Positions 1,862 to 61,261 of a DNA stretch of 64,000 nt are shown in pieces. How positions within the stretch are numbered: the first letter of the stretch is position 1; the number at the start of each line of letters is the position of its first letter. Origin of the DNA: an uncultured Gammaproteobacteria bacterium (GTDB taxonomy: Bacteria; Pseudomonadota; Gammaproteobacteria; JACCXJ01); contig CAVXTM010000012.1 in assembly GCA_963764725.1 (NCBI GenBank), forward strand, positions 224,001-288,000. The letters run 5' to 3'. A program made the position numbers and the translations under genes. The notes under the pieces were generated by a model. The model was given only the letters and a program-made list of their open reading frames with translations. It did not search any database and was not told where the DNA came from.

Positions 1862-2479
1862 TCAAAGCGCGTAAACGACGCGGCTTCCGGGCGGATACCG
1901 TTCCTCCATGATGGCGCCAATATCCGCGTAGTGCGAGCGATCGACCCACCACGTCGTGTACGACGCATCCCTCAGAAGCCCAGGCAATGCCGCGTCCACG
2001 ATTCCCTCGCGCACCAACTCCGACACCTCCCTATCTCCTGGCAGCGCCGGTACCGATTTAACCAACAGCAGATGCCGAGCGGCGAGCGTATGGGCCAACC
2101 AAGCGGCAAGACTATCGGAGGTCACGCCCCAGCAGTGCGGAATTCCATCTTGCCCCCGCATCATATCCCGCGGCAGCCACACTGCGACGCGCCCCGAGGC
2201 GAGCGCATTCGTGATTTGCGCCCGATCTCGCACTGGCGCAAGACGGGGTTCGATCCCGGTCATCATCAGACCGAACTGTTCCATCGCAAGCACCGCCATT
2301 GCGTGCCCGGCCTCATCCGAAAACTTCCACTCGGATTGGGCATGGCGCACCTGGTCGGCAAACGGCCCGCCACCCGGCACGATGATCGCCCTCCCCCCGG
2401 CCTCTTCGACTAGCGCGCTGAGCCACCGCGGTAGCTCGCTCGCCCATGCTAGGCTGCCGCCTAACTTAACCACCCACAT
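1862..2479 (-). CDS. Amino-acid-kinase-family protein of the H4MPT/MFR cluster (Orf21/MfnE-like)
   Basis: VVKLGGS, VPGGGPFADQVR and W.VTSDSLAAWLA motifs; C1 cluster context. Confidence 0.8.
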   Translation of the reverse strand: MWVVKLGGSLAWASELPRWLSALVEEAGGRAIIVPGGGPFADQVRHAQSEWKFSDEAGHAMAVLAMEQFGLMMTGIEPRLAPVRDRAQITNALASGRVAVWLPRDMMRGQDGIPHCWGVTSDSLAAWLAHTLAARHLLLVKSVPALPGDREVSELVREGIVDAALPGLLRDASYTTWWVDRSHYADIGAIMEERYPPGSRVVYAL

Positions 2480-4894: not shown

Positions 4895-4909
4895 CGTGTC
4901 CTGCACGTG

Positions 4910-5029
4910 ATTCTGAATACCCCGCCGTTTACGGCGCGACACTTTAGCATTGGGGTTTCCAAAGGGAAGTAGTGCAACTCTCCTCTTTGATCAAGGGCGG
5001 GCTTCATACTCCGCCCGCGAAGTAAAATT
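4910..5029. repeat. Three-hairpin dispersed element, copy 1
   Basis: attctgaataccccgccgtttacggcg...ggggtttccaaaggg...gggcgggcttcatactccgcccgcgaagtaaaatt, nearly identical to 9494-9611. Confidence 0.9.
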
Positions 5030-5997
5030 TATATTGCGCCACGGGACGAATACGCGCTTACAGCACCGGGGATCCGCATACAGGCATCCACTACCGGTGC
5101 GGCGGGATTAAACCCCAGAGACTGCCGCAAACCCACGTACGCCTCTGTAAGGCGCGGATTGATCTCCATCACCATGGGACCCGACTCCGTGATCACTAGA
5201 TCGATCCCTATATAGCCCCGCAGCCCCGGCATCGCTTCCAGAATTCGGCTTACTAATTCCTCGAACTCATGCCGGCGATGCGCTAGCGCATTCACCGCCA
5301 CGCCAGAATATACGAGCCGGTGGTCGGTTATCTGTATTCGCTGCGCGTTGCATGCGAGTAAGCTATGCGATCCATCATAGCACAGCACGCTCAGACTGGC
5401 CGGGATCCCGGGTATATACGGCTGAACAACTAAGCCATGGGCCCACTTTCCGGAACTGATGACGTCCTCCGCGCGCCGGAAATAATAGGTTTCTTCACAC
5501 CCAGCGCCATCGTCCGGTTTGATTACCCAACCGCCATCGCTTGAGGGTAATTCCGTGTTCAGGTACATGGTGTCCGCCACCGGGACATGATGCCTCTTAA
5601 GCGCGCGCGCCGTGCGAAACTTGCTAGCCGTAACCTGGACCGCTCGGGGATGGCACCCGATCAAGATCCGGTTTTTATCGAGCACGCAGCGGTTCAAACG
5701 TTCTAAAACACCCCCCGTCTCGGGTGCGATCGGCCATACGGCATCGGCAGCCTCGATACATTGCTCCCAGCGCTCCCAAACCGATCGCTGAGGCAAAATG
5801 ACCCGCGTCTCGATGCCGGGATCCAAAGATGCGAGACGTGCGTCACGTGTGGTCGCTGTCTTGACCGTGGGGATCGCGCGGAGATCGTCGAGGAGTGCCC
5901 GTAACATTGCATCGCCCGCCGCGGCGAGCGCGACCGGAAGCGCCTCGCCCGCGAGCCCGCCGCCGGTAATATACTCGCACACGAAGATGCGCGGCAT
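5029..5997 (-). CDS. ATP-grasp protein (Orf1/MfnD-like tyramine--glutamate ligase family)
   Basis: EYITGGG, IAPETGG, KPDDGAG, GYIGID and EINPRLT motifs. Confidence 0.8.
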   Translation of the reverse strand: MPRIFVCEYITGGGLAGEALPVALAAAGDAMLRALLDDLRAIPTVKTATTRDARLASLDPGIETRVILPQRSVWERWEQCIEAADAVWPIAPETGGVLERLNRCVLDKNRILIGCHPRAVQVTASKFRTARALKRHHVPVADTMYLNTELPSSDGGWVIKPDDGAGCEETYYFRRAEDVISSGKWAHGLVVQPYIPGIPASLSVLCYDGSHSLLACNAQRIQITDHRLVYSGVAVNALAHRRHEFEELVSRILEAMPGLRGYIGIDLVITESGPMVMEINPRLTEAYVGLRQSLGFNPAAPVVDACMRIPGAVSAYSSRGAI

Positions 5998-6078
5998 CTC
6001 GGAAAAAACATGCCCCGGTATTGACTACCGGGGCATGTCACACAATCAACGTCGTGTCGGGGAGACCACGACTACCCG

Positions 6079-6588
6079 TTACACGTGGTCAGCAAAGGGA
6101 TGTGCCGTATTCTTCTTGGCGACGACGTCCATCGCCTTCGGCAAACGCTTGACCGCACGTTCGATGGATTCCTTGGTCGCCTGGTAGTTGAAATCCTGGA
6201 TTTTCTTGTTGTCCTCGGCTTCCCAGTGAATGAACACGCCCACGCAGATAAAAATATCCTCCGCCTCGCTGGCGGGGATAATGCCGCTTTGGACCGAATC
6301 AACGACGGCCATGGCGACCGCGCGTTGCGCCGGACCGAACATCTGCACGGCCTGCTTAGCGCCCTTGATGGTGACCTTGTTAAAAAGGATGGTGTTGGGT
6401 TTACACGGCAAGTTTGGCGATACGACCGCCAGCAAGGTGCTGCACCCGTCCTTCTGGTTGGTCAAGGCATTGCAGAACGCGGCCTCGGCGGCGCTTCCCC
6501 GCGGTCCCATGATAAGATCGACGTGCGCGATCTCGTTGCCATCCCCGACTAAGGATTCCCCGACTAATACTCTGTCAACGACTGCCAT
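6079..6588 (-). CDS. fae: Formaldehyde-activating enzyme
   Basis: [36 protein letters not shown] and VGVFIHW; 169 aa from ATG 6588. Confidence 0.95.
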
Positions 6589-6692
6589 AGTTTTAGCTCC
6601 TATTACTTCTCCAGTTGAAGTTTGTCCGACAAGTGTTCTGAAGATAGACATCGCTTGCCACCTTATTTATTACGGAAAAGGATCTCACCCCA

Positions 6693-7601
6693 TTACCGAG
6701 CTACTGCAGCCGCAACAGCCTGATCGCGATTGAGCCCCGCCAGGAGGTATTCTAAATGGAACGCCAGCAGGCTCGCCACGGTCAGATCGGCGCTGGTCCC
6801 GGGATTGAGCCCCTCCCGTTTTAAATTATTATCGAATTCCTGCAACAAAGGCATTGCATTGATTAAATTTTCGCACGCCTTGAACTGGGATTCCACTTCT
6901 TTTGCAATTCGACGCACTCCTTCGGCCCGTTCTGGTCCGTATTTGCGCTCGATATGGCTGTCCCGAAACGCCGCCAGAAAGTGTAAGTAACAGGCCACGG
7001 TCGCCCACCGCAGCGCCATCGCATCGTTGCACCCCGGCTTGATGTAGCGCTCGATACAGGGCACGCCGATGTTAAAAATCTCAATAAAATCGTTAGCGTA
7101 TTGGAAGGCGATCCTATCCCAGGCCTGAGCTTCGGCCATCGCTGCGCGCAAGCTAACAGTGGGATCGCTGCGCACATCGAAATGCTCACGCCGGCCAAGC
7201 CCCGCGGGCGCGGCCAGCGCGATTGCAGCAAAGACCCGACTTGTGTCACCGTGTGTCAGCGAGCGCAGTACTGCTTTGAGCCGCGGCCGCAGCCGCCCTT
7301 GCGGCGATTCCATGAGGACAGAATGCACCAGCGGCGCGCATAGCAGCACTATGCCGAGATTGGTGTTACATCCGACGGCCCGCTGCGTTGCTTCAATGCT
7401 ACGCAGGATGCGTTCGCCAACGCTAAAATCCTGCGCGCAGAGCAGCGGCGCCGCCGCTTCGGCGCTACGAATAAAATCGGCGGCGCTCATTCCGTGCCCG
7501 GGCGCCTGCACGCTGACGTTTCCCGGCTTCAACGCCTCGAGATCCAGCCGGCAGCTCCAGAGCCAAGCCTCGGCGACCGCGGGCGCGGCGATCCGGATCA
7601 T
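6693..7601 (-). CDS. CitG-like triphosphoribosyl-dephospho-CoA synthase family protein (Orf7)
   Basis: KPGNV, NTNLGIVLL, DSHIERKYG and NPGTSAD; has its own ATG at 7601 within an ATGA overlap. Confidence 0.85.
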   Translation of the reverse strand: MIRIAAPAVAEAWLWSCRLDLEALKPGNVSVQAPGHGMSAADFIRSAEAAAPLLCAQDFSVGERILRSIEATQRAVGCNTNLGIVLLCAPLVHSVLMESPQGRLRPRLKAVLRSLTHGDTSRVFAAIALAAPAGLGRREHFDVRSDPTVSLRAAMAEAQAWDRIAFQYANDFIEIFNIGVPCIERYIKPGCNDAMALRWATVACYLHFLAAFRDSHIERKYGPERAEGVRRIAKEVESQFKACENLINAMPLLQEFDNNLKREGLNPGTSADLTVASLLAFHLEYLLAGLNRDQAVAAAVAR

Positions 7602-8513
7602 GATGAACGCACCCCATGGCGGGGCCGGACCGCGTCCATGCAGCGCCAGAAAATGGTCCACGAGCCGCTCGGCGATATCGAAGCTCGTGACGCCTTGCAG
7701 GCCCTGCCAGGCCGGAACGCTATTGACCTCGGTGACCAAGAAACGCCCGTCTCGGTCCTGCATCAAATCGACGCCGGCGTAATCGATGACCACCGCCCGC
7801 GCAGCCTCCTCGGCCAGCATGGCCAGCGGCGCATCGAGAGGGACGGCAAAGCAACGGCCCCCGCGCGCCCGATTGGTGATCCAGTGCGCGCTGCGGCGCT
7901 GCATCACCGCCACGGCGTGGCCATCGATCACCAACACCCGCCAATCGCGCCACGCGCCGTCGCGGCTGTCGATATATCGCTGGAGGTAATACACCTGGCC
8001 GAAGGCTTCCGGATCCGGTAAGGCCTCGGCGCGATCGACCAAGGTGACACCGACCCCTTGGGAGCCGAACAAGGGTTTCATCACCAGCGGCGTATTTCTC
8101 GCCAGCTCGCGTTCGACCAACGCGCGCGCTTCCGACTCGGCTTCGAGCACCCAGGTGTCCGGCGTCGGGATCCCGGCTCGGTTGAGCAAAAAACTGGTCA
8201 TCGCTTTGTCGACCGTACGCTCAATTGCGCGTCCATCGTTGTAAACCACGACTCCGAGCTCCCGCAAGGCATGGAGCAAATCAAGCCGCAGGATGACCTG
8301 TTCCAAGGTGCCTCCGGGGACACCGCGTATGAACACCCCCGCGGGCGGCTCACGTTCGAATCCGGGGATGACGACCGGCTTCGGACGGTTGAGATCGAAT
8401 CGGCATGCCGTCAAGGACACGGTGAGGCACTCGAAACCCCGCGCTTTGAGGGCGCGTTTCAATACCGCGCCGTGCCAACCGGGATCATCCGTGACAATAG
8501 CCACGCAGGGCAT
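7598..8513 (-). CDS. RimK-family ATP-grasp glutamate ligase (Orf5); reads through into Orf7 as assembled
   Basis: GGTLEQVILRLD, KPLFGSQG, YAGVDL and EVNSVPAW; the natural TGA at 7598-7600 is out of frame by +1. Confidence 0.85.
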
Positions 8514-8523
8514 AGGCTGGGAA

Positions 8524-9489
8524 CTAGGAAAATGACTGATCGAGCAAGGCTTCGTTGAATTTGCCGCCGTGGTAGGTCTTTCCGGTCCGGACCGAGCTTA
8601 TCGTGATCCGCGCCGGGCTGAACAGCCCCGGATCGATCGCGTAGAAATTATAATTGTAATCCTTAAATATCGCGGCAAAAGGTTTCCCGTAGTCACGCGA
8701 GGAACTGCTCGGCAGCTTGTGCGCCAGATCCTGCGCGTCGCCATCGCTACAGTCGACATAAAGCGTTACGTAACCTCCATACAGGATGGCATCGTTGGTG
8801 CGGCCCATCGCAGTGATTAGGTCTTTAGAGGGTGGACAGACCGGCGCCGTCGCCATGCCATCGACGATCGTGGACAGCGGGAAGCCAAGCGTGTGCACCC
8901 GATGCAACGACACCTCGAGGGAGCGCGCCACAACTTGCACCGCCCCGCATAGGCTCGTGGTCGGCGTGAGGATAAGGGTCAGGTCCTGAGGTTTGATGGC
9001 GCAGAAGTTCGCGACTTTCTCTGCGATTTCGACCGGAGGCCGTTCCTTGACCTCCAAGACCAAACAGGCCTGGTCGAAAGCGTCTCGATACCCGAGCTCT
9101 TGAAACAGGGGCTCGTGGCTGCCGATGGCCCGGGCCGGACCGGATCCCAACGCTTTAAAGGCACCCTTGCCCTCCCCGTATTCGAGGCTCCACCCCGCGT
9201 ATTGGCTCGCCAAGCAGGCCAGCACCGCGTTCGAGGTATACACATCAAGCTGCCACGGCGAATGCGGAAAGTCCCCCCCGGCGCGAATACTAACCCGCCC
9301 GAGGCCGCCCAGACAGATCTCGGCGATGCGCCGCCCGGCCTCGATCCCGCCCAAAACCGCGATTCCGGCGTCCACAACGACAGTCCCGTTCGTTAAGGAA
9401 TCCACCGCCAATCTCAGCGCCACGGCATCGGCGATCAGAGCTTGCACCAAAGGCTGCGCTAAAGCATTCACACTGGGTTGGTTATTCAT
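8524..9489 (-). CDS. mch: Methenyl-H4MPT cyclohydrolase
   Basis: EICLGGLG, ACLASQYAGW, GSGPARA, MGRTNDAILYGG and IDPGLFSPA; start trimmed to ATG 9489 because the upstream extension is repeat DNA. Confidence 0.95.
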   Translation of the reverse strand: MNNQPSVNALAQPLVQALIADAVALRLAVDSLTNGTVVVDAGIAVLGGIEAGRRIAEICLGGLGRVSIRAGGDFPHSPWQLDVYTSNAVLACLASQYAGWSLEYGEGKGAFKALGSGPARAIGSHEPLFQELGYRDAFDQACLVLEVKERPPVEIAEKVANFCAIKPQDLTLILTPTTSLCGAVQVVARSLEVSLHRVHTLGFPLSTIVDGMATAPVCPPSKDLITAMGRTNDAILYGGYVTLYVDCSDGDAQDLAHKLPSSSSRDYGKPFAAIFKDYNYNFYAIDPGLFSPARITISSVRTGKTYHGGKFNEALLDQSFS

Positions 9490-9493
9490 CTTT

Positions 9494-9611
9494 ATTCTGA
9501 ATACCCCGCCGTTTACGGCGGGCACTTTACCATTGGGGTTTCCAAAGGGGAGTAGTGCAACTCCCCCTTTGGTCAAGGGCGGGGATCATACTCCGCCCGC
9601 GAAGTAAAATT
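9494..9611. repeat. Three-hairpin dispersed element, copy 2
   Basis: Stems cccgccg/cggcggg, ccaaaggggagt/actccccctttgg and gggcgggg/ctccgccc. Confidence 0.9.
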
Positions 9612-9638
9612 GATTAATTTCACGCCATCGCCCGGTTT

Positions 9639-10736
9639 CTAGCCCGCTGTAAGCACCGCCAGCAACTTTTGACATCGGGTATCCAGGAACCGAGTCACAG
9701 CACCCGGTTCACACCCCGCTGCGTGCACCGTACAGATTGGCTCGCCCGCGCGCACGCGCGAACCCGCTGCCGGCCGATCACGGCTCCAGCGGGGCCATGG
9801 ATGCCGGATCTGCAGCGCATGCGGCGCGTAGAGAACCCGCACCGCGGCGATCTTGTTTTCTTGCGGGCCGGCCCGGGCCGGCAATCGCCCGCGGCAGGCG
9901 TCGACGTGGACTGTGAATAATCCGCCATCCCTCTCGTGCAATTCAAAGCTCGCGGTCGGACGCGGGTTGATCTCGAGGAGAGTCCAGCGCTCGTCATCAT
10001 CGACAATGAAATCCGCGCCGCAAAGACCGCGCAAACCAAACGCCGAGGTAAGCTCCGGGACGACCTGCGCCAGATCCTTACGCACTCGCGCGGGTAAACT
10101 TCGATCCGCGATTGCGCCGCGATGCGTGAACGTGCCAGGCTCCTGCCAGATCGCGTTATAGCCGACGATCGTCGCTCCGCGCCCGTTCGCCGCGAAGACC
10201 ACCGACTGTACCCGCCCGGCGACGGCGCGCTGTAAAAAATACCCCGGCGGACATTGGCGGTCCGCTCCTAAAGGCCGGACGTGCATGCCGCCTGAGCCGC
10301 CGATGCGCTTCCGTAACCACCCGCGCGAGTCGCCGGGGAGGCTCGAGCGTGTGTCTGGATGCGGGATCCCCAACCGCGACAAAGCGGCAAAAAAACTTGC
10401 AGGTTCTTTGACAGAACGGACAATCTCCGCCGCGTTACCGAGTAACTCCGCGCTCGCTGGCAGAGCGTCCAACAACGCTGGGTCCTGTTCGAAACCGCTG
10501 CCGGCGACCACGCCTGCGATGCGATCGCGTGCGCCCACCTTTTCGACCGCGGTGCATAAGGTCTCGCGATCGAAACCTTGGGGTCCCGGACGAACGCGCG
10601 CTGCGCTCCGCGCGAACGCATGCGTATCGCGATCGGCGAAGAGATCGACCACGTGCACCGCAGCACGGCTCCGCTGCGCGGACTGAGCGAGAGCGCGGCC
10701 CGATTGGCCGATGATGAGGTAGGCGGACTCAGCCAG
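9639..10736 (-). CDS. ATP-grasp protein of the H4MPT cluster (OrfY-like)
   Basis: D.FAD.DT, GSGFE, GGSGG and LEINPRP; the frame extends upstream (YLIIGQSGRALAQSA) to a CTG at 10736 preceded by GGAG, so the start is tentative. Confidence 0.75.
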   Translation of the reverse strand: MAESAYLIIGQSGRALAQSAQRSRAAVHVVDLFADRDTHAFARSAARVRPGPQGFDRETLCTAVEKVGARDRIAGVVAGSGFEQDPALLDALPASAELLGNAAEIVRSVKEPASFFAALSRLGIPHPDTRSSLPGDSRGWLRKRIGGSGGMHVRPLGADRQCPPGYFLQRAVAGRVQSVVFAANGRGATIVGYNAIWQEPGTFTHRGAIADRSLPARVRKDLAQVVPELTSAFGLRGLCGADFIVDDDERWTLLEINPRPTASFELHERDGGLFTVHVDACRGRLPARAGPQENKIAAVRVLYAPHALQIRHPWPRWSRDRPAAGSRVRAGEPICTVHAAGCEPGAVTRFLDTRCQKLLAVLTAG

Positions 10737-11637
10737 CGGCGATCTCCCGGGCTATTTCAAAGGCCTTGATGTGATCCAGATACACGGGTTTCTCCGCCTG
10801 AATCATGAGTTGAAACAGGCGATAATGAACCTGGTATTTGACATTGCCGATCGCCAAGGCGCCGATGCCGAGGGCCTTGGCCGGAGTCGATTCAAGCACC
10901 TTACCCTTGTCATTAACGCCGACGCCCTCGATCCCGGCCGGGGGCACCGCGTTCACGTCGGCTGCCACCAGAAGCTCAGACGCGGTCCCGAGTTGATCGC
11001 GCGACAGCACTTGAAATCCGGCCTTGGCGGCGCCGACGACCACATGGGCCCGCGGTAGGAACGCGCGTATGGACGCGTCATTGCTGCTGTCGGCGCCCTG
11101 AAGTTTGACACCGTAACGTTCGTTGTAGGGCGCCGCCGCCTTCACGGCGGCGTCGGCACCCCGCTGGCTCGCGAGAAACATATTGGCGCCGCTGTTCGAT
11201 CCCAATATTCCCGCGCATACACCGACGGGTCCCGTCCCGCCGAAGACATAGACGTTGGCGCCGGACAATCCCTGCGCGCGGCCTTTCTTCTTAAGCGCCG
11301 TTTCCACGCAGGCCATGAGCGCCGCGGCCGTAGTGATCGCCCCGCTCGGATCGGCGAATACAGAAACCTCGAAAGGAGGCACCATGGCCTTTTTCGCCTC
11401 CTCCAACATATCGATCGCGAGCCCGAAGTCGCGGCCCCCGAGAAAGATACCGGTCCGCTTCACGCCGGTGGGGCTGCGAGAAAATATCGTGTCTTGGGTC
11501 AACGCGTAGATATCCTCCAGGGCAACGTTGGTATAGGGGATCACACCGTTGAACTCTGCCTCATAGGCCATATTGACGTCGAACGGGCTCACGTTCTTCG
11601 TCGGGTTGAACATGTGTAATAAATAGGGGTCTTTCAT
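10729..11637 (-). CDS. mtdB: NAD(P)-dependent methylene-H4MPT dehydrogenase
   Basis: SPFDVNMAYE, QDTIFSR, VPPFEVSVFADPSGA.TTAAA, GGTGPVG and DVNAVPP. Confidence 0.92.
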   Translation of the reverse strand: MKDPYLLHMFNPTKNVSPFDVNMAYEAEFNGVIPYTNVALEDIYALTQDTIFSRSPTGVKRTGIFLGGRDFGLAIDMLEEAKKAMVPPFEVSVFADPSGAITTAAALMACVETALKKKGRAQGLSGANVYVFGGTGPVGVCAGILGSNSGANMFLASQRGADAAVKAAAPYNERYGVKLQGADSSNDASIRAFLPRAHVVVGAAKAGFQVLSRDQLGTASELLVAADVNAVPPAGIEGVGVNDKGKVLESTPAKALGIGALAIGNVKYQVHYRLFQLMIQAEKPVYLDHIKAFEIAREIAAG

Positions 11638-11711
11638 TTTACCGTCCGTTTATTTTTAATGAATTCCGCTGCGGGCTTATGGTCGCGGCCTGCGCTACTT
11701 CGGTCTTGAAA

Positions 11712-12725
11712 TTACGCGGCCTTTCTACGCACGCCGATCTCGGCGCCGCTATTGCGCCCGCCGCAGACCGAGAAGCCTAAGGGTGCTCCCCACTGCTGGG
11801 TCGCCCGTTGCCATAGGCCGTGCGCGCGAGAAGCGCTGTCGACGAGCGCAAATCCGGTCGGGCCCCAGGAACTTTGTCCCACCCCTCGCAGGCCCTCGTC
11901 CTGCAACCAGCGCAACACCTCCGCAACTCGCGGACTGCTATAACGGCCGCCCTGGTAGGGGGCGAAATAGTCACCGACTGCCTCTTGAATCGCGGTGATT
12001 CCGGCGCCGAAGGCCTCGAAGTCATGCTCGGCCAAGGCCGGTAGGACCTGCATCAAAAGCACTCGGCAAAGATGCGCCGATACCTGCGTGGCCATTGGCG
12101 GCATCTGTTTAAACGCCGCGGCCTCCTCGCTGCCGTTCAACCCTGTCCGGGCTTGGTCGGAAATGAGCAGGATTCGCCATGGCGGCGGAAACGCGACCTG
12201 ACACAGCACCGGCGGCACCACCGTCGCACGTCCGCGACCGCCGTCGACCAAAAATCCGCCGCTCTCGAACGCAGCCAGGCCGATCCCCGAGCGCACTCCC
12301 CGCTCCGCGAGCTTCGCAAGCTGACAAAGATCGCTATCGAGATCGAACAGGCGTACGAACGCAGCGCAGATCGCCAACGCCAATTGGGTTCCCGAACCGA
12401 GACCCACGTGCTCCGGGATCGCCTCCTCGATAGCAATCGACACCCCGCTCTTCAAGCCCAAGGTCCGCAGCAGCATCCGCGCGCACTGCTCCGCGCGCCC
12501 GCTCGATGGACCGTTAGCATGGACGCCCGGCGAGCGCGTGACGCTCAGGCGTGTCTGGATACCGCTCAAGGTCAACCCGAGCCCCCCGAACCGCCGTCCG
12601 AGATCGCCGCTCATGTCGATAAAGCCCAAGTGTAAGCGCGCCGGCGCGGTGACGGTGACGGTCAGGCCATCGTACTGAGCGCCGAGCGCTTGCTCCGGTA
12701 GCGGCGTTGCGGAAGGGTCAGGCAT
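11712..12725 (-). CDS. mptG: Beta-ribofuranosylaminobenzene 5'-phosphate synthase
   Basis: APARLHLGF, H.GLGSGTQ, RSGIG..F..GGF.VDGG and GQSSWGPT. Confidence 0.92.
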   Translation of the reverse strand: MPDPSATPLPEQALGAQYDGLTVTVTAPARLHLGFIDMSGDLGRRFGGLGLTLSGIQTRLSVTRSPGVHANGPSSGRAEQCARMLLRTLGLKSGVSIAIEEAIPEHVGLGSGTQLALAICAAFVRLFDLDSDLCQLAKLAERGVRSGIGLAAFESGGFLVDGGRGRATVVPPVLCQVAFPPPWRILLISDQARTGLNGSEEAAAFKQMPPMATQVSAHLCRVLLMQVLPALAEHDFEAFGAGITAIQEAVGDYFAPYQGGRYSSPRVAEVLRWLQDEGLRGVGQSSWGPTGFALVDSASRAHGLWQRATQQWGAPLGFSVCGGRNSGAEIGVRRKAA

Positions 12726-12927
12726 AGCGCGGGAAATTCATTCGATGGGTTAATGATATAATACCCAAGACTCCGATACCTAACACAGACTCGCCTTATC
12801 GGCGCGGCAGAACGTTGACGGGTTAGCAGGGAAATGTTAGAAGTGCCATCACGAAATGTAGTCCTTGCGAAGGCCATCCCAGCGCCCGAGAGACGACCCT
12901 TCGAGGCGCAGTAATTAACTATTGACC

Positions 12928-13284
12928 ATGGCCGAAATGATGATCCTGGTCCCGGGGCGGACCAACAAACAGGGCACGTCATTAAACGCGGGCAAGCTCA
13001 AGAAAGAGTACCGGGACGTGACCTCCACGGTGGAAATGAACACCGATGACATGGCGCGGCTCGGCATAAAAGAGGGTGACGCCGTGCGCTTAGCCACGGA
13101 CATCGGCGAGACCGTCGTGCGCTGCAAGGGACGCAAACCCACCGACCTTCCCGCGGGCATGTTGTTTATCCCCTATGGCCCGCCGAGCTCTCAGCTCATG
13201 GGCGGCGATACCGCGGGGAGCGGTATGCCTTTGTCCAAGAATTTCGAGGTCAGTGTGGAACTTGTCGAAGGCCCCGTCGCTTGA
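12928..13284 (+). CDS. fwdD: Formylmethanofuran dehydrogenase subunit D (molybdopterin-dinucleotide-binding domain)
   Basis: GRT..QG, MN..DM..LGI..GD.V, G..FIPYGP and T.GSGMP..K. Confidence 0.85.
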   Translation: MAEMMILVPGRTNKQGTSLNAGKLKKEYRDVTSTVEMNTDDMARLGIKEGDAVRLATDIGETVVRCKGRKPTDLPAGMLFIPYGPPSSQLMGGDTAGSGMPLSKNFEVSVELVEGPVA

Positions 13285-13362
13285 TCGAGCCGGCCATTTT
13301 ATTCCGGCGAATTCCGGCGCCGATTAAACGATCACACAGCATAGGATTTCCGAGGTAAAAAT

Positions 13363-14700
13363 ATGAGTGACAATATTCGGACAGTGGAGCATGCCACCTG
13401 CACCTTTTGCGGTTGCGTGTGCGACGACATGGACCTGACAGTCGATGTGGATGCGAAGCGCATCACCAAGGCTAAGAACGCGTGCACGCTTGGACGCGCC
13501 TGGTTCGCGGAGCATACTATCGAAGACCGTCCGTTCGCCTTAATCGACGGCAAAGCCACCACCACCGAGGAGGCGGTCGAGGCCGCCGCGCACATCCTCG
13601 TCGCGGCGCGGCTGCCGATCATCTACGGCTTGAGCGACACCACCTGCGAGGCCCAGCGCCAAGCGGTGGCGATCTGCGATCTCATGCACGGCAATATCGA
13701 CACCACCACCTCGGTCTGCCACGGTCCCTCCGGCATCGCGTTCCAAGGCGTCGGCGAAAGCACGGCGACACTGGGTGAAATCAAGAACCGCGCGGATTTG
13801 GTCGTCTACTGGGGCGGTAACCCCGCGGAATCGCATCCGCGCCACTTCACCCGCTACGCGGTCACCCCCAAGGGACGGTATATCCCCAATGGCAGGAAAG
13901 ACCGCTACGTGGTCTTGGTCGATGTGCGGCGCACACCGAGTGCGCCGGTGGCGGACCTCTTCATCCAAATCAAGCCAGGACATGACTTCGAGCTTTTGTG
14001 GGCCCTGCGTGCGTTTGTCAAAGGCCGCAAGGTCGATCCGAACCTGGCCGAGCGCACGGGCGTGCCCCTGGCGACCATGGAGAATCTAGTACAGCGGATG
14101 AAGAGTTGCCGCTACGGGGTCTTGTTCTTCGGCATGGGGCTGACGATGACCCGCGGGCGCCATTTCAACTCCGGCGCCGTGCTGGCGCTCGCTACGGACC
14201 TGAATGAATTTACCCATTTCGTGGCCAAGCCCGTACGCGGCCACGGCAATGTCACCGGGGCCGACAACGTCGTCTCCTGGCAAACCGGCTATCCGTTCGG
14301 GGTCAACTTCAGCCGCGGTTACCCGCGCTTCAATCCCGGCGAGTACACGACCGTCGATCTGCTCACCCGCGGCGACGCGGATGCGGCCATGATCATCGCG
14401 AGCGATCCGGCGTCCAATTTTCCGCGCCCGGCCATCGAGCACATGAAGCGCATCCCGGTGATCGCCTTGGACACCAAACCGACCGATACCACCCAGTTGG
14501 CCAAGGTCGCCTTCACCACTTCGACCTATGGCATCAATACCTCGGGGACGGTATATCGCATGGACGATGTGCCGCTTACCTTGCGCCCGGCCTTTGAGTC
14601 GCCTTATCCGAGCGACGAAGAGGTGCTCACCGCGATCAAGAACCGGGTGCGCGAGTTGCTGACTGAGAAACGCGCGCGGTTCTACGCAAAGGTGGCTTAG
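13363..14700 (+). CDS. fwdB: Formylmethanofuran dehydrogenase subunit B with intact Fe-S and Mo/W-ligand motifs
   Basis: CTFCGCVCDD...C, SVCHGPS, TLGEIKNRAD, NPAESHPRH, RGHGNVTG and GTVYRMD. Confidence 0.92.
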   Translation: MSDNIRTVEHATCTFCGCVCDDMDLTVDVDAKRITKAKNACTLGRAWFAEHTIEDRPFALIDGKATTTEEAVEAAAHILVAARLPIIYGLSDTTCEAQRQAVAICDLMHGNIDTTTSVCHGPSGIAFQGVGESTATLGEIKNRADLVVYWGGNPAESHPRHFTRYAVTPKGRYIPNGRKDRYVVLVDVRRTPSAPVADLFIQIKPGHDFELLWALRAFVKGRKVDPNLAERTGVPLATMENLVQRMKSCRYGVLFFGMGLTMTRGRHFNSGAVLALATDLNEFTHFVAKPVRGHGNVTGADNVVSWQTGYPFGVNFSRGYPRFNPGEYTTVDLLTRGDADAAMIIASDPASNFPRPAIEHMKRIPVIALDTKPTDTTQLAKVAFTTSTYGINTSGTVYRMDDVPLTLRPAFESPYPSDEEVLTAIKNRVRELLTEKRARFYAKVA

Positions 14701-14714
14701 GCAACCAAGCACCG

Positions 14715-16355
14715 ATGCTACGCATATCGAATGGCCGGATCTACGATCCGGCCAACGGAGTGAACGGCGCGATCCGGGATATCTGCATCAACGCGGGAAA
14801 GATCGTCGCAGACGTCCCCGCGGCCGCGAAACGCATGGACGCGCAAGGCATGGTGATCATGCCGGGGGGCATCGACATCCATTGTCATATCGCCGGACCC
14901 AAGGTCAATCTCGCGCGCAAGCTTCAGCCCGAGGACCACCGACTCGACGTGCATCCCGGCACGGCGTTCACCCGCTCGGGCACCGGGGGCGTGGTGCCTT
15001 CTACTTTTGCCACCGGCTACCGTTACGCGGCGCTCGGGTACACCACGGCGATGGAGGCCGCGGTCACCCCCATCGGCGCCCGTCACGTACTGGAGGAATT
15101 TCACGACATCCCCGTCATCGACAAGGGGTTCTATGTGCTCCTCGGGAACAACGTTTTCTTGTACGATTTGCTTAAAGCCGGGCGGCGCGAGGACTTTCGC
15201 CAAGCGGTGGCCTGGTGGGTCAATGCGACCAAGGCGTATGCGGTTAAGTTGGTCAACCCGGGGAGCGATGAGCTTTGGAAGGGACACCGCAACGCGAACA
15301 TTACCAGCGTAAACGAGAAAATCGACAACTTCGATCTCACGCCGCTCGGCGTGATCAAGGCGTTTATCGAGACCGTCGACGATCTCGGTCTTCCCCACCC
15401 TCCGCATATTCATTGCAACAACCTGGGCCGCAGCGGCAACTATACGACTACCCTCGAGACCATGCGGGCCGCCGAGGGACGGCGGGTGCACATCGCGCAC
15501 GTACAGTTCCATAGCTACGGCGGGGAACCCGGGAAAAACCCGACCTCGAAAGGTCCCGAGATTGCCGATTACATCAACAAACATCCGAATATTACCGCCG
15601 ATGTCGGCCAGGTCATGTTCGGGAAGGCCACGGCGATGACCGCCGACGCGCCCCTCGGCTACTTGTTGCGCGGAATCAGCGGCAACAAATGGATAAACGC
15701 CGATACCGAGTGTGAGAGCGGGTGCGGGATCGTACCCTTCACCTATCACGAAAAAGCCTACATGCACGCGCTGCAGTGGGCGATCGGACTGGAGCTGTTC
15801 CTGTTATCCGAGGATCCGTGGCGGATTGTTTTATCGACCGACCATCCCAATGGCGGCTCCTTCATGATGTACCCGCGTTTGATCCGGCTGCTCATGGATC
15901 GCGATTTTCGCAACCAAGAGATCCGGAAAGTGAATCAAAAGGCGATTCGCAATACCGTGCTGGCCGACAAGCTCGACCGGGAGTATACCCTGGAGGAGAT
16001 CGCGATCATCACCCGAGCCGGTCCCGCGCGCGCGCTTGGGCTGAAAGACAAGGGGCACCTCGGCGTCGGGGCAGACGCCGACATCACCATTTACGACGAG
16101 CACGACGACAAGGAGCGCATGTTCAGCACGCCGCGCTACGTGATCAAGGACGGCGTCGCGGTCATCGAAGACCACGAATTCCGCTGCGACCACGAGGGGC
16201 GTGTCCTGCATACGGCGCCCGCGTACGATGCCGCGATCGAAAACAGCATTAAACCATTCTTCGAGGATAACTATAGTATTGTTTTTGAGAACTACGCGGT
16301 CACGGACCGGTATCTGCACCACCATCAGGTGATACCGACGGTCCTCGAACGATAA
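14715..16355 (+). CDS. fwdA: Formylmethanofuran dehydrogenase subunit A (amidohydrolase)
   Basis: DIHCH, K.VNPG, HIHCNNLG, HVQFHSYG and STDHPNG metal-ligand motifs. Confidence 0.93.
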   Translation: MLRISNGRIYDPANGVNGAIRDICINAGKIVADVPAAAKRMDAQGMVIMPGGIDIHCHIAGPKVNLARKLQPEDHRLDVHPGTAFTRSGTGGVVPSTFATGYRYAALGYTTAMEAAVTPIGARHVLEEFHDIPVIDKGFYVLLGNNVFLYDLLKAGRREDFRQAVAWWVNATKAYAVKLVNPGSDELWKGHRNANITSVNEKIDNFDLTPLGVIKAFIETVDDLGLPHPPHIHCNNLGRSGNYTTTLETMRAAEGRRVHIAHVQFHSYGGEPGKNPTSKGPEIADYINKHPNITADVGQVMFGKATAMTADAPLGYLLRGISGNKWINADTECESGCGIVPFTYHEKAYMHALQWAIGLELFLLSEDPWRIVLSTDHPNGGSFMMYPRLIRLLMDRDFRNQEIRKVNQKAIRNTVLADKLDREYTLEEIAIITRAGPARALGLKDKGHLGVGADADITIYDEHDDKERMFSTPRYVIKDGVAVIEDHEFRCDHEGRVLHTAPAYDAAIENSIKPFFEDNYSIVFENYAVTDRYLHHHQVIPTVLER

Positions 16356-16378
16356 GAATTAGAATTAAATCCTTCTGC

Positions 16379-17272
16379 ATGCATATTCAATCCACCGAGG
16401 TCATCGATACCTTCGCGGAGGCTTTTGCCATGTGGGGCGCACGGGTGATCATCACCGCGGCCAGCCCCGCGTGGGCCCTCGCCGCCGCACGCTCGATGAC
16501 CGGATTCGCGACATCGGTGATCGGCTGTAAATGCGAGGCCGGGATCGAGCGGGAGCTGGCCGCCGAGGAAACGCCCGACGCACGCCCCGGGATCAGCGTG
16601 TTGCTGTTTTCGACCAGTTTGGAGGGGGCCGGCAAACGGCTCCTCGAGCGGATCGGCCAGTGCGTGATGACCTGCCCGAGCACTTCGTGTTTCAACGGTC
16701 TCGCCTCGGGCGAGAGCGTGAGCGTCGGCGGCAAGCTCCGCTACTTCGGCGACGGCTATCAGATCGGCAAGTCCCTGGACGGGCGTCGCTATTGGCGCAT
16801 TCCGGTGATGGATGGCGAATTCGTGGTCGAAGACCGCTTCAATATCCAGCCGGCGGTGGGCGGCGGGAATCTTCTAATCCACGGCCTGGATCAAACCCGG
16901 ACTTTGGAAACCGCCGAGGCCGCGGCCAGCGCGATGCGTGCCGTTCCCGGCGTGATTCTGCCGTTTCCGAATGGTGTCGTGCGCAGTGGCAGCAAGGTCG
17001 GATCGCGGTACAAGGGCTTGCCGGCCTCCACCAACGATGCTTACTGTCCAACCTTGCGGGCGTTTTCCGCGGCAACCGAAGTCCCGGCCGAGGCCGCTTG
17101 CGTGTTGGAAATCGTGATCGATGGGCTCGAACTGCGGGGGGTCCAAGACGCTATGCGCGTTGGCATCAACGCGGCTTCCGGGAACGGCGCCTTGCGGATC
17201 TCTGCCGGAAACTACGGCGGGGACCTCGGCCAGTACCGGATCGGTCTGTACGACCTTCTTCAAGCGACCTGA
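16379..17272 (+). CDS. ftr: Formylmethanofuran--H4MPT N-formyltransferase
   Basis: DTFAEAF, TGFATSVIGC..EAG, RIGQCVMTCP, GVVRSGSKVGS and ISAGNYGG.LG. Confidence 0.95.
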   Translation: MHIQSTEVIDTFAEAFAMWGARVIITAASPAWALAAARSMTGFATSVIGCKCEAGIERELAAEETPDARPGISVLLFSTSLEGAGKRLLERIGQCVMTCPSTSCFNGLASGESVSVGGKLRYFGDGYQIGKSLDGRRYWRIPVMDGEFVVEDRFNIQPAVGGGNLLIHGLDQTRTLETAEAAASAMRAVPGVILPFPNGVVRSGSKVGSRYKGLPASTNDAYCPTLRAFSAATEVPAEAACVLEIVIDGLELRGVQDAMRVGINAASGNGALRISAGNYGGDLGQYRIGLYDLLQAT

Positions 17273-17285
17273 ACGACTCGCTACG

Positions 17286-18104
17286 ATGAGCCTCAAGCTC
17301 GTGCTCAAGCACGAACCGGAAGTCCCACTAGAAGCCGAGGTCATCACGCCAGCGAAGCTCAACGGTTTGAGTATCGGTGAGATCACGAAGCTTCCGCTGC
17401 AATACGGGAACGAACGCATCGAGCTGGGCGAGTTTTTTCGCGTCGAGGGTAGCTATAGCGGTGAAATCCGCGTGGAAGGTGATCTTGCGCGCGTCAAGCT
17501 GGTCGGCGCGGGGATGAGCGAAGGCCGGATCGTGATACATGGTCGCATCGGGATGCATCTCGGCGCCGGGATTTCGGGCGGGGAGATCCTTGTCGAAGGC
17601 GACGCCGGCGATTGGGTCGCGCCCGAGATGTCCGGAGGCCGGATCGTCATCAAGGGCAATGCCGGGCACATGATCGGCAGCGCCTATCGGGGAAGTCCGG
17701 CCGGCATTCGCGGCGGGGAAATCATCATCCACGGCAATGCCGGCAACGAGATCGGTCACGCCATGCGCAAAGGTCTGATCGCGATCGGCGGAGACTCCGG
17801 CGACTTTACCGGGGTCGACATGCTCGCGGGAACCATCATCGTGATCGGCGATCTCGGCAACCGCACGGGGGCGGGGATGAAACGCGGTTCCATCGTCTCG
17901 ATGCGGCCCGCGCAGATGCTGCCGACCTTCAGCTATGCGTGCAGCTATCAGCCGCAGTTCCTGCGCCTGTACCTATTGCATTTGTCACGGCTGGGCTTGC
18001 CGGTCACGCCGGCTTATCTCAATGGCCATTACCAACGCTGGAGCGGGGATGCCCTCGAGATGAACCGCGGCGAGGTGTTGCTGCTCAGCGGCGAGGCCGC
18101 GTAG
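17286..18104 (+). CDS. fwdC: Formylmethanofuran dehydrogenase subunit C (GXGXG beta-helix)
   Basis: Repeated G..M.GG.I.I.G.AG units; ATG 17286. Confidence 0.92.
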   Translation: MSLKLVLKHEPEVPLEAEVITPAKLNGLSIGEITKLPLQYGNERIELGEFFRVEGSYSGEIRVEGDLARVKLVGAGMSEGRIVIHGRIGMHLGAGISGGEILVEGDAGDWVAPEMSGGRIVIKGNAGHMIGSAYRGSPAGIRGGEIIIHGNAGNEIGHAMRKGLIAIGGDSGDFTGVDMLAGTIIVIGDLGNRTGAGMKRGSIVSMRPAQMLPTFSYACSYQPQFLRLYLLHLSRLGLPVTPAYLNGHYQRWSGDALEMNRGEVLLLSGEAA

Positions 18105-18180
18105 ATCGGCGATGCGCGCCTGAGCAAGTACTCCAAGCCGAAACAATAAACCACTTTCACTGCGTCGCGAGGAGATCCAC

Positions 18181-18486
18181 ATGACCACGATCGTAACCGA
18201 AAATTGCCTCCGGTGCCGCTTCACCGATTGCGTCACGGTCTGCCCGGTGAACTGCTTCCATGGGGACGATGACATGCTGTATATCGACCCCGAGGTCTGC
18301 ATCGACTGTAGCGCCTGCGTACCCGAGTGTCCGGTACATGCCATCCATGAGGGAGAAGACATTCCCGACAACCTGAAACACTGGACAGAGATCAACGCCG
18401 AACGCGCCCCGAACTTACCCGTGATCGAAAGCAAACAAGATCCGCTGCCCACGGCCGAGGCGCGCCGAGCGGAGTTAGGATATTGA
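18181..18486 (+). CDS. fdxA: Ferredoxin, FdxA-like (7Fe-type cysteine spacing)
   Basis: CLRCRFTDCVTVCPVNC and CIDCSACVPECP; GAGGAG RBS. Confidence 0.9.
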   Translation: MTTIVTENCLRCRFTDCVTVCPVNCFHGDDDMLYIDPEVCIDCSACVPECPVHAIHEGEDIPDNLKHWTEINAERAPNLPVIESKQDPLPTAEARRAELGY

Positions 18487-18519
18487 TAGAAGTATATTGC
18501 GCGTGCGCAGAGACTGTAG

Positions 18520-19896
18520 ATGAATACCGTAGGAACTCCTGAAAACCCATTGCAGGTTGCCGTCGTCGGCAGCGGCCCGAGCGGCTTCTACGCCGCCGAA
18601 GCCCTGATCAAGTCCGGGCGCGCCGTGCGCGTGGACATGTTCGAGCGGCTCGCCTCGCCCTTCGGGCTCGTACGCAGCGGCGTCGCGCCCGATCACCCCA
18701 AGCTCAAACAAGCCATCCTCGTCTACGACAAGATCGCGCGCTCGCCCGAGTTTTCATTTTTCGGCAATATCAACGTGGGCAAGGACATCACGCTCGGCGA
18801 GCTGCGCCAGAACTATCACGCGATCCTATTCACCTGCGGGGCGGAAACGGACCGGCGGCTGGGGATCCCGGGCGAGGATCTCGGCGGCAGCCATACTGCC
18901 ACCGAATTCGTCGGCTGGTACAACGGTCATCCCGATTATCGCGACCGGGTGTTTGATCTATCGCACGAGGTCGCGGTCATCATCGGCCAGGGTAACGTGG
19001 CCGCGGATGTTTGCCGCATCCTGGCCAAAACGGCGGACGAGTTAAAACATACCGATATCTCGGAGCACGCGCTTGATACGCTGGCCGAGAGCAAAGTGCG
19101 GGAAATCCATGCAATCGGACGCCGCGGACCGGCGCAAGCGAAATTCACCAGTCGCGAATTGCGCGAGTTCGGTGAGCTTGGCGATTGCGATCCCTTCGTC
19201 GACGCGCTGGAGTTAACGCTGAATCCGGAAAGCGAGGCCGAGCTCGTCGACAAGAACAACATGGTCAGCGCTAAGAATGTCGAGATCTTCCGTGATTTCG
19301 CCCGGCGCACGCCGGGTAAGCACCGCCGCTGTATTTTCCAGTTCCTGCGCAGTCCCGTGCGGCTCGAAGGCGCGGGGCGGCTTGAACGCGTGGTGCTGGA
19401 ACGCAATCGGCTACAAGGGGCGCCGTTTCAGCAGTCGGCACGGAGCACGGGGGAGATCAGCACGCTCGAGTGCGGGATCTTGTTCCGCAGCATCGGCTAT
19501 AAAGGGGTGGCCGTTTCCGAGGTGCCCTTCGACGAGCGCAACGGCGTGATCACCAACCGCGCCGGGCGCGTGCTCGATAGTGACGGCAGTGTCGTTTCCG
19601 GTCTTTATTGCGCGGGATGGATTAAGCGCGGTCCGACCGGGATCATCGGGACCAATCGCGCTTGCAGCGTGGAGACCGTCGGTTCGCTGCTTGCGGATCT
19701 AGACGCACTCGCGACACCGGGCGCAAAAAGCGGGACGCATGGTATCCGAGCGCTCATCGAGGAGCGCGGTTTGCGCGCGGTCAACTACGACGGTTGGCTG
19801 AAGCTAGACGCCGCCGAAGTGGAGCGCGGTAAACCCAAGGGAAAACCGCGCGAAAAATTCACCCGGCTGCATGAAATGCTGGCGCTGCTCGGATGA
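18520..19896 (+). CDS. Ferredoxin--NADP+ reductase, FprA/adrenodoxin-reductase type
   Basis: VVGSGPSGFY, GLVRSGVAPDH, FVGWYNGHP, GQGNVAADV and GWIKRGPTG. Confidence 0.9.
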   Translation: MNTVGTPENPLQVAVVGSGPSGFYAAEALIKSGRAVRVDMFERLASPFGLVRSGVAPDHPKLKQAILVYDKIARSPEFSFFGNINVGKDITLGELRQNYHAILFTCGAETDRRLGIPGEDLGGSHTATEFVGWYNGHPDYRDRVFDLSHEVAVIIGQGNVAADVCRILAKTADELKHTDISEHALDTLAESKVREIHAIGRRGPAQAKFTSRELREFGELGDCDPFVDALELTLNPESEAELVDKNNMVSAKNVEIFRDFARRTPGKHRRCIFQFLRSPVRLEGAGRLERVVLERNRLQGAPFQQSARSTGEISTLECGILFRSIGYKGVAVSEVPFDERNGVITNRAGRVLDSDGSVVSGLYCAGWIKRGPTGIIGTNRACSVETVGSLLADLDALATPGAKSGTHGIRALIEERGLRAVNYDGWLKLDAAEVERGKPKGKPREKFTRLHEMLALLG

Positions 19897-20157: not shown

Positions 20158-20414
20158 GACGTGGAATTCAGCAAGCACTATTCTGCGTTGAGAAAGCGTC
20201 AACCTTATGGAAGCTAAAAGCCCTTCCCCGCGTACCGGCTCGGCTATGCCCAGAGGCGCCCGGTGACGGGTATAACCTGTTTCTGCAAACGGAGCGGTTT
20301 TGTGTTGGAATTTTATTGGGCCAGGCTCGTGTTGTCCGGTTCCGGCGTTATGCATGGGCCTTGTGCAGGCGGGAAAGTCATTGCTCAACTGCAGACCACG
20401 CAAAGAGTACTACT

Positions 20415-61170: not shown

Positions 61171-61261
61171 GTCAGGCATCAGGAATTTCCACCGTGAGCT
61201 GGCGACTCGTGGGGGTAATCGTTTGTGACCACATAAGTAAACTCCTTCGTTTACGTCTTGG

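Follow-up and report, generated by a model that had tools for sequence, protein, structure and literature searches.

In the textbook scheme of aerobic methylotrophy, the tetrahydromethanopterin (H4MPT) pathway ends in a redox-dead Fhc complex that releases formate. The 64-kb stretch of DNA analysed here (the window; contig CAVXTM010000012.1 of assembly GCA_963764725.1, an uncultured gammaproteobacterial genome designated G000) contained seven genes in one orientation, in the order fwdD-fwdB-fwdA-ftr-fwdC-fdxA-fprA. Judged from its sequence, the enzyme encoded by this operon is best filed as a bacterial formylmethanofuran (formyl-MFR) dehydrogenase (Fwd) with a formyltransferase (Ftr), linked to a ferredoxin (FdxA) and an NADPH:ferredoxin oxidoreductase (FprA), and not as an Fhc complex.

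Among the closest described systems, archaeal FwdABCD(FG)/Fmd (Methanothermobacter wolfeii 5T5I; 8RJA, 9SFI, 9SW6, 7BKB) shares with the operon the A, B, C and D subunits, the four-cysteine motif, Cys-His pair and arginine of FwdB, and the cap domain of FwdD, and its chains were the best or near-best solved matches for FwdB, FwdA, FwdC and FwdD. Unlike the archaeal systems, the operon lacks FwdF/FwdG and FwdE and possesses instead a ferredoxin of the 7Fe type together with an NADPH reductase of the FprA type; its ftr lies between fwdA and fwdC, the tail of its FwdC is FhcC-like, its host is an aerobic bacterium and its predicted direction is oxidative. FwdF and FwdG are described as accessory and are missing from some archaeal operons (PMC7325909). 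The F420-coupled Fwd of ethane-oxidising archaea provides a precedent for an oxidative Fwd wired to an acceptor that is neither a free ferredoxin nor a polyferredoxin, although that acceptor is F420 and the host archaeal, whereas electrons from the operon's enzyme are predicted to pass from FdxA through FprA to NADP+ (PMC11493965).

The FhcABCD complex of Methylorubrum extorquens (6S6Y; PMC6926001) has the gene order B-A-ftr-C and the same place in the H4MPT pathway of a methylotroph as the operon, but it releases formate, whereas the operon's Fwd is predicted to yield CO2. According to Hemmann et al. (PMC6926001; M. wolfeii numbering), FhcB has lost Cys118 (now Ser), His119, Arg288 and the N-terminal [4Fe-4S] domain, along with the FwdD subunit, and FhcC, whose C-terminal region is a helix-loop-helix unlike archaeal FwdC, acts as the binding platform for FhcD. 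In contrast, FwdB and FwdD of the window kept every hallmark lost in FhcB, and FwdB does not have the character of an Fhc B subunit.

Bacterial operons of the same kind, with a Cys or selenocysteine (Sec) FwdB and a D subunit, are already in print at the genomic level. Chistoserdova (2016, PMC5020050) recorded fwdD in Archaea, Synergistetes, Firmicutes and NC10 and stated that Planctomycetes and Proteobacteria do not have it. An fmdD-B-A-C arrangement whose FmdB contains Sec was reported by Kim et al. (2016, PMC4807772) from Rhodopirellula sp. P2, a Lake Washington fosmid and Ca. Methylomirabilis oxyfera, and Merino et al. (2020, PMC7325909) described Hakuba Actinobacteria in which fwdDBA-ftr-fwdC has both Cys118 and the cluster domain. 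Wells et al. (2023, PMC10100899) listed 149 bacterial FwdB hits and inferred transfer from Archaea. In the passages of these accounts that concern the operons, no FdxA-FprA module is mentioned and no biochemistry is reported. No paper linking Fwd to FdxA or FprA was found, and matches to the term 'FprA' concerned an unrelated F420H2 oxidase of methanogens. The novelty that the first-pass annotation had suggested for the locus, pending a check, is accordingly only partial.

Family assignments were based on the open reading frame (ORF) listing of the window and on Pfam and NCBIfam scans. The operon (12928-19896) comprised the following genes, given in window positions, as are all coordinates below that carry no contig or locus name:

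12928..13284, + strand: fwdD, molybdopterin-dinucleotide-binding 'domain IV' cap subunit (PF01568, NF042908)
13363..14700, + strand: fwdB, predicted catalytic subunit with molybdenum- or tungsten-bis(pyranopterin guanine dinucleotide) (Mo/W-bisPGD) and a [4Fe-4S] cluster (TIGR03129)
14715..16355, + strand: fwdA, amidohydrolase subunit, predicted to convert formyl-MFR to formate and methanofuran (TIGR03121)
16379..17272, + strand: ftr (fhcD-like), formyl-MFR:H4MPT formyltransferase (NF002554, TIGR03119)
17286..18104, + strand, ATG at 17286: fwdC, beta-helix scaffold subunit whose C-terminal tail is FhcC-like (TIGR03122)
18181..18486, + strand: fdxA, 7Fe ([3Fe-4S][4Fe-4S]) ferredoxin, operon-specific paralogue (FdxA_Protbact)
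18520..19896, + strand: fprA, adrenodoxin-reductase-type NADPH:ferredoxin oxidoreductase (PDB matches)

The successive intergenic gaps from fwdD to fprA measured 78, 14, 23, 13, 76 and 33 nt. The fwdD ORF begins with a TTG at 12922, the ATG at 12928 being the likely start, and the fdxA ATG is preceded by GAGGAG. No terminator-like site was reported at the fwdC/fdxA/fprA junctions by a consensus scan whose totals were not above those of shuffled sequences. No FwdF/FwdG polyferredoxin was found within the operon by the ORF and family scans, as no further ORF there matched any family; a genome-wide search was not made. The gene content read in the first pass was thus borne out, namely the presence of fwdD (recovered by PF01568, NF042908 and archaeal FwdD structures), the position of fdxA and fprA behind ftr and fwdC on the same strand with short gaps (13-78 nt), and the lack of FwdF/FwdG in the operon.

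FwdB scored 506.8 bits against TIGR03129 (cut-off 327.8), and its translation contained C13-x2-C16-x3-C20 and C41, SVCHG at 117-121 and VRGHG at 291-295 (RGH at 292-294). In a search of all PDB chains, its top matches were archaeal FwdB (8rja_B, 3.2e-115; 9sfi_Q, 3.2e-111; 5t5i_B, 2.5e-108), with further archaeal matches to 9sw6_J (2e-100) and 7bkb_H (7.9e-98). The alignments with archaeal FwdB structures were full-length and matched the cluster cysteines, Cys119, His120 and Arg292, so that FwdB possessed both the N-terminal [4Fe-4S] cysteine motif of Fwd/Fmd and, as C119, H120 and R292, its metal-ligating Cys and His and conserved Arg. By comparison, M. extorquens FhcB (6s6y_B) matched at just 2.2e-17, in an alignment that started at query residue 60 and therefore indicates an FhcB without the cluster domain. 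The [4Fe-4S] motif, SVCHG and RGH that had been noticed in the first pass were all seen in the translation in register with the archaeal residues, and the comparison with methanogen FwdB and FhcB that it had proposed placed FwdB with the former (7.9e-98 to 3.2e-115, against 2.2e-17).

The other dehydrogenase subunits gave a similar picture. FwdD, a separate cap subunit as in Fwd/Fmd, was above the cut-off for PF01568 (49.1 bits, 6.6e-13), scored 85.3 bits (3.6e-24) with the FwdD model NF042908, which is under the cut-off of 175 of that exception model, and had the archaeal FwdD chains 2ki8, 9sfi_S, 5t5i_D and 8rja_D as its best solved relatives (1e-15 to 1e-17). FwdA possessed the amidohydrolase subunit signature of Fwd/Fmd (TIGR03121, 696.9 bits; cut-off 392.75) and was nearer to archaeal FwdA (8rja_A, 2e-146) than to FhcA (6s6y_A, 7.5e-110).

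To place the catalytic residues among relatives, a scan with one genome per species returned at least 599 pattern matches and at least 538 confirmed relatives, of which the best 80 (74-97% identity), all from metagenome-assembled genomes (MAGs), were kept. A second, Fhc-type set lay within the fetched stretch of 32 of these 80 loci, often right behind fprA, with B subunits 25-37% identical to the window FwdB; these 32 paralogues, encoded in the same fetched loci as the Fwd-type orthologues, were compared with them residue by residue:

C13, C16, C20 and C41: kept in 80/80 Fwd-type orthologues and in 32/32 Fhc-type paralogues
C119: kept in 80/80 Fwd-type and 0/32 Fhc-type
H120: kept in 80/80 Fwd-type and 0/32 Fhc-type
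R292: kept in 80/80 Fwd-type and 5/32 Fhc-type
H294: kept in 80/80 Fwd-type and 0/32 Fhc-type

Because the residues were invariant in all 80 orthologues while the Cys-His pair was lost in all 32 paralogues, selection acts specifically on the redox site, and no other computational evidence obtained here argues as strongly as this contrast that the Fwd-type site is in use. The Fhc-type B subunits beside the Fwd operon (e.g. L028:16756-17988, L034:16747-18006, L039:14985-16187) were themselves peculiar in that the four cluster cysteines were kept in 32/32, unlike M. extorquens FhcB, which is without the N-terminal cluster domain; they may still bind a cluster or represent a halfway stage of decay.

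Other features of the operon were closer to Fhc. Ftr scored 415.4 bits against NF002554 (cut-off 297) and 405.3 bits against TIGR03119 ('one_C_fhcD'), and its best solved relative was FhcD (6s6y_D, 1.9e-95), with archaeal Ftr 1ftr behind (2.5e-87). FwdC possessed the beta-helix subunit signature of Fwd/Fmd (TIGR03122, 266.7 bits; cut-off 130.65), but its alignments with five archaeal FwdC chains stopped at about residue 203-223, whereas residues 17-264 aligned with FhcC (6s6y_C, up to FhcC residue 262), the C-terminal region included. The tail motif LPtF..C..P...R..GD..ElNRGEiL was kept in 61 Fwd-type orthologues and was common to eight Fhc-type paralogues. In addition, ftr was encoded between fwdA and fwdC, and the order D-B-A-ftr-C mirrors fhcB-A-D-C. 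Given an Ftr resembling FhcD, a FwdC tail resembling that of FhcC and a similar gene order, the complex is best described as a putatively intact Fwd already bearing an Fhc-style formyltransferase attachment, in which Ftr is predicted to dock on FwdC. The 'hybrid Ftr-Fwd' idea of the first pass gains support here, with Ftr closest to FhcD and a FwdC tail that aligned with FhcC alone.

The electron module at the 3' end of the operon consisted of an FprA/adrenodoxin-reductase-fold enzyme and a ferredoxin with the 7Fe pattern. FdxA scored 118.4 bits (1.5e-34) against FdxA_Protbact, slightly below the cut-off of 135; its best solved relative was Azotobacter vinelandii 7Fe ferredoxin I (~2e-28), with every cysteine aligned, and its nine cysteines were invariant across 52 operon-linked orthologues (mean column identity 84%). 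A second fdxA, 48% identical to the operon copy, was present in G000 on contig C11, which makes the operon FdxA a dedicated paralogue. FprA matched Mycobacterium tuberculosis FprA (1lqt, 2.2e-108, residues 10-455; 2c7g, titled 'NADPH-ferredoxin reductase FprA', 2.7e-107) and adrenodoxin reductase (1cjc, 1.1e-106). FprA-type enzymes are reversible, and in M. tuberculosis FprA pairs with a 7Fe ferredoxin. The operon pair resembles this mycobacterial FprA and FdxA (1LQT, 2C7G) in its FprA match and its 7Fe cysteine pattern, whereas its predicted flow is from ferredoxin to NADP+ and the mycobacterial pair is believed to work in the opposite sense, taking electrons from NADPH to ferredoxin, e.g. 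to P450s. The identities of FprA and FwdB were correlated (rho 0.65, and 0.52 without close kin) on a par with the core subunits, the sequences being kin and not independent. A complex prediction for FwdB and FdxA gave 0.04 and 0.12 with alignments A1 and A2, against a mark of 0.32; made without controls, it speaks neither for nor against binding. Contact between FwdB and FdxA, and NADP+ as the final acceptor, are both predicted.

Synteny was scored by tblastn of the window proteins on the 80 loci, of which 61 were scorable for fdxA and fprA:

49 loci: fdxA-fprA immediately 3' of fwdC
2 loci: fdxA-fprA immediately 5' of fwdD
1 locus: fdxA 3' of fwdC, where the contig then ends
8 loci, all Gemmatimonadota: fprA without fdxA, 5' of fwdD
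1 locus, Chloroflexota L054: neither fdxA nor fprA
19 loci: not scorable (contig end before, or no more than 1.9 kb past, fwdC)

Of the 61 scorable loci, 60 therefore had at least one of the two genes beside the fwd genes, with fprA in 59/61 and both together in 51/61. The association is not confined to one phylum and persists where the gene order differs, as in the rearranged loci of Gemmatimonadota. The survey thus did not turn up the loss of synteny that the first pass had named as a possible refutation. At the other end, fwdD was directly 5' of fwdB in 78/80 loci; L024 begins at fwdB, and fwdD was not found in L068. The relatives were named as Gammaproteobacteria, Alphaproteobacteria (2), Gemmatimonadota (11), Chloroflexota (3), Ca. 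Oxydemutatoraceae (2) and Ca. Porisulfidus (2), with one labelled Mycobacterium. FwdB identity between phyla was 76-80%, from which horizontal movement of the module is inferred. While a close FwdB relative was present in at least 538 species-level genomes, the fwdD marker was detected in 8/201 genomes of a sample spread evenly over the class, i.e. a patchy distribution.

In an unrooted FastTree of FwdB (106 rows), the clade of the window formed one branch with a support of 100, and the Fhc-type paralogues were far off; as the catalytic columns of many representative rows look misaligned and archaea and bacteria are unlabelled, no donor or order is drawn from it. One of 10 clusters of FwdB representatives was named (Pirellulales). 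The nearest neighbours of the clade were P0122 and P0123, apparent FwdD-FwdB fusions of ~580-606 aa. These two and P0128, P0135, P0143 and P0152 were ~570-606 aa long and matched FwdB from about residue 140-166 on, which suggests natural FwdD-FwdB fusions. In Chloroflexota, ~470-540 nt separated fwdD from fwdB and held a 70-aa ORF of no known family (L054:9693-9905, Caldilineaceae MAG). Locus L054 also had a 4.2-kb insert between fwdB and fwdA (L054:11574-15423) with DUF11/DUF7507 and VIT1-family genes, in which no recognisable electron carrier was found.

The nearest proteins, 93-98% identical, came from gammaproteobacterial or Chromatiales MAGs, among them 'Chromatiales bacterium USCg_Taylor', and G000 (19 contigs, 96.9% complete) possessed three pmoA loci, one of them split; the host is a USC-gamma-like (upland soil cluster gamma) methanotroph. 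The operon was preceded by two further features:

12726..12927: divergent intergenic region between the gene for beta-ribofuranosylaminobenzene 5'-phosphate (beta-RFAP) synthase (- strand) and fwdD (+ strand), presumed promoter region
2466..12725, - strand: H4MPT/methanofuran island, divergent from the fwd operon (family scans)

No consensus sigma-70 match was reported by the consensus scan in the intergenic region. The island contained pabB, an MfnF-like gene (TIGR03123), an MfnD-like ATP-grasp gene, fae, an MptN-CitG fusion, mch, a second ATP-grasp gene, mtdB and the beta-RFAP synthase gene, and it likewise lay upstream of fwdD in many related loci. With fae-mch-mtdB and cofactor-synthesis genes transcribed divergently from it, the operon stands in a context of oxidative C1 metabolism.

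Whole-assembly searches and a tblastn search for paralogues showed FwdB, FwdA, FwdD, Ftr and FwdC to be single-copy in G000. A second, ~30% identical set was present in 8/8 congeners, but no Fhc-type B or A was found in the G000 assembly, and the fhcBADC regions of three congeners had no matching DNA in G000. The Fwd-type set is consequently the only outlet found for formyl-H4MPT in this genome. An FdsA-type formate dehydrogenase was likewise not found in G000, whereas it was above the cut-off in 5/8 congeners, split in a sixth, and encoded beside the Fhc set in congener G008. Congeners G001, G002, G005, G007 and G008, and the tallies with G009, G010, G012, G014 and G130, rest on unpublished genomes. 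An assembly gap at the junction that corresponds to the Fhc/FdsA island of G008 was rejected as the cause of the missing genes, because one flank of that island could be placed in the middle of a G000 contig (C5, ending at 63482), beside unrelated housekeeping genes; the other flank had no match in G000, and a clean deletion is thus not demonstrable.

The search for other MopB genes in G000 returned a narG split in three ORFs, a NasC scrap and nothing else, leaving FwdBD as the sole intact molybdopterin enzyme found, while MoaA, MobA and ModA were intact; with regard to the check for Mo/W-bisPGD synthesis genes proposed in the first pass, these are indirect evidence for such a cofactor. The narG remnant (G000:C11:154010-157647; locus L099 4010-7647) was missing its first ~72 model positions, and the adjoining narH and narI looked intact; the NasC C-terminal scrap was at ~81787-82269 of G000:C13.

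Taken together, the operon is proposed to encode an Ftr-associated Mo- or W-bisPGD formyl-MFR dehydrogenase (FwdABCD and Ftr) that would serve as the oxidative exit of bacterial H4MPT-dependent formaldehyde oxidation and pass its electrons via FdxA and FprA to NADP+, a reading to which a probability of about 0.58 is given. Ftr would transfer the formyl group from formyl-H4MPT to methanofuran or methylofuran, and FwdA would hydrolyse the resulting formyl-MFR. The formate would be handed internally to FwdBD and oxidised to CO2 at a metal-pterin site ligated by Cys119; electrons would exit via the [4Fe-4S] cluster of FwdB to the 7Fe ferredoxin of the operon, from which FprA would form NADPH. The potentials of CO2/formyl-MFR (~-530 mV), the [3Fe-4S] cluster of a 7Fe ferredoxin (~-420 mV) and NADP (~-320 mV) make this sequence downhill and, with the oxidative gene context, argue for the oxidative direction. 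Moreover, the electrons of formyl-MFR are ~100 mV more reducing than those of formate, which would make ferredoxin reduction possible in an aerobe. Metal and pterin content, direction and the internal formate channel are predictions; residue conservation and synteny lend support to the first-pass suggestion of formyl oxidation to CO2 with ferredoxin reduction and NADPH formation.

Several observations weigh against this reading. FwdD and FdxA scored under the cut-offs of their narrowest NCBIfam models, eight Gemmatimonadota loci had no adjacent fdxA and one Chloroflexota locus had neither gene, and neither fwd nor fhc was mentioned in those USC-gamma genome papers that were searched by term. 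G000 also kept a formate dehydrogenase of the metal-free, NAD-dependent type, encoded 12 kb upstream of the window, and an intact formate-tetrahydrofolate ligase (FtfL). Together these two enzymes imply a pool of free formate, and the complex may therefore release some; free formate is probably still made, possibly leaking from FwdA. Finally, an FdhD-type sulfur-transfer protein was not found in G000, although it was present in 10/10 other carriers with complete chromosomes. It was not found in the eight congeners or one family relative either, and as congeners without it mostly keep FdsA-type formate dehydrogenases, its lack would be a trait of the lineage and not decay. Whether carriers without other MopB genes keep FdhD and MobA gave no discrimination, all 10 complete-chromosome carriers having FdhD, MobA and several other MopB genes. 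In four of these 10, fdhD and mobA adjoin (G220:C1:524280-525684, G224:C1:756292-757664, G225:C1:155124-156480, G223:C1:778908-780505), the pair of G220 being located ~13 kb upstream of the fetched fwd-operon stretch.

Among the alternatives, the one that survived best, although unlikely, is that Fwd is redox-active and reduces FdxA while the main sink is not NADP+, electrons going to other consumers, or FprA working from NADPH to ferredoxin to keep the clusters reduced or activated. The Gemmatimonadota and Chloroflexota loci without fdxA, or without both genes, indicate that the module is not rigid, and the second fdxA paralogue of G000 and the reversibility of FprA point the same way. Set against this, fdxA and fprA occurred together in 51/61 scorable loci, always beside the fwd genes, and no other ferredoxin-consuming gene was conserved in the cluster.

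It is quite improbable that the complex is an Fhc-like pure hydrolase that releases formate and carries its redox motifs as relics. Such an enzyme would fit the Fhc-like Ftr and FwdC tail and, in a genome where no Fhc was found, the retention of FtfL and the NAD-dependent formate dehydrogenase, but its redox residues would hardly be invariant in 80/80 orthologues across phyla and lost in the true Fhc-type paralogues of the same loci. FwdD was also retained in 78/80 loci, and the molybdenum cofactor synthesis genes were kept although no other intact MopB gene was found in G000.

Marginally less probable again is operation in reverse, with NADPH driving CO2 to formyl-MFR via FprA and FdxA for CO2 fixation or formate supply, as the first pass had allowed. 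An NADPH-level donor (-320 mV) would be ~200 mV too positive for CO2/formyl-MFR (-530 mV), which makes this direction strongly uphill and unlikely. The operon was without any bifurcating or energy-coupling subunit and stands in a fae-mtdB-mch context in a pmoA-bearing aerobe, even though the archaeal enzyme can run both ways and, in methanogens, acts in the reductive direction (PMC6926001).

Least probable of all, fdxA and fprA could be unrelated neighbours, e.g. donors for the DesA-family desaturase encoded downstream of fprA on the same strand after a gap of ~420 nt (20316-21533), as DesA-type desaturases require a ferredoxin and reductase pair, but this client was rejected on the basis of synteny, because DesA matched in 0/80 related loci (E <= 1e-8, coverage of 50% or more), one of them a locus from the same genus that extends 4.6 kb past fprA, while fdxA and fprA were conserved where DesA was unmatched, and the desaturase gene is accordingly a local neighbour.

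Some further features of the window were recorded. Within the island, 6693-8513 (- strand) encodes a 606-aa fusion of a RimK/MptN-like ATP-grasp glutamate ligase (residues 5-287) and a CitG-like triphosphoribosyl-dephospho-CoA synthase (315-583). At the 5' end of the long mch ORF (350 aa; 9475-9576), the first ~34 codons precede the MCH domain, and stretches of 24-34 residues of this ORF had 76-90% matches at seven other sites of G000 (C11, C12, C18); these stretches probably lie in the leader and look like copies of a small repeat or miniature inverted-repeat transposable element (MITE). A 412-aa ORF (56977-58215, + strand) combined an ArsC-like thioredoxin-type arsenate reductase domain (8-138) with a PyrF orotidine-5'-phosphate decarboxylase (175-397), either as a fusion or through an over-extended start. 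A truncated type I-C cas1 (60712-61323, - strand; model positions 185-339 alone) and an IS3-family transposase fragment (31768-32196, + strand; model positions 297-368 alone) look like remnants of mobile or defence genes.

The operon is widespread and is known here from genome sequences. It is of special interest as the only formyl-MFR-converting enzyme found in the genome of a USC-gamma-type methanotroph, the lineage to which the uptake of atmospheric methane in soils and caves is attributed, and since no alternative Fhc or FdsA route was found, G000 lends itself naturally as a test case. If active, a Mo/W Fwd coupled to NADP+ would constitute a second and energetically different exit of the H4MPT pathway. 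A trajectory from Fwd to Fhc has been proposed on the basis of the Fhc structure, and the operon offers a concrete intermediate for it. Tentatively, and with less confidence than in the enzymatic assignment, this operon type can be seen as a still-extant stage between the Fwd of archaea and the Fhc of bacteria, with Ftr and the FhcC-type tail in place already and the dehydrogenase as yet intact. It would act as the sole H4MPT exit in USC-gamma atmospheric-methane oxidisers such as G000, converting the formyl group directly to CO2, capturing its very low-potential electrons as reduced ferredoxin and NADPH and largely bypassing free formate. If true, the textbook scheme of aerobic methylotrophy would need revision, and ideas on how cells subsist on trace methane would be affected.

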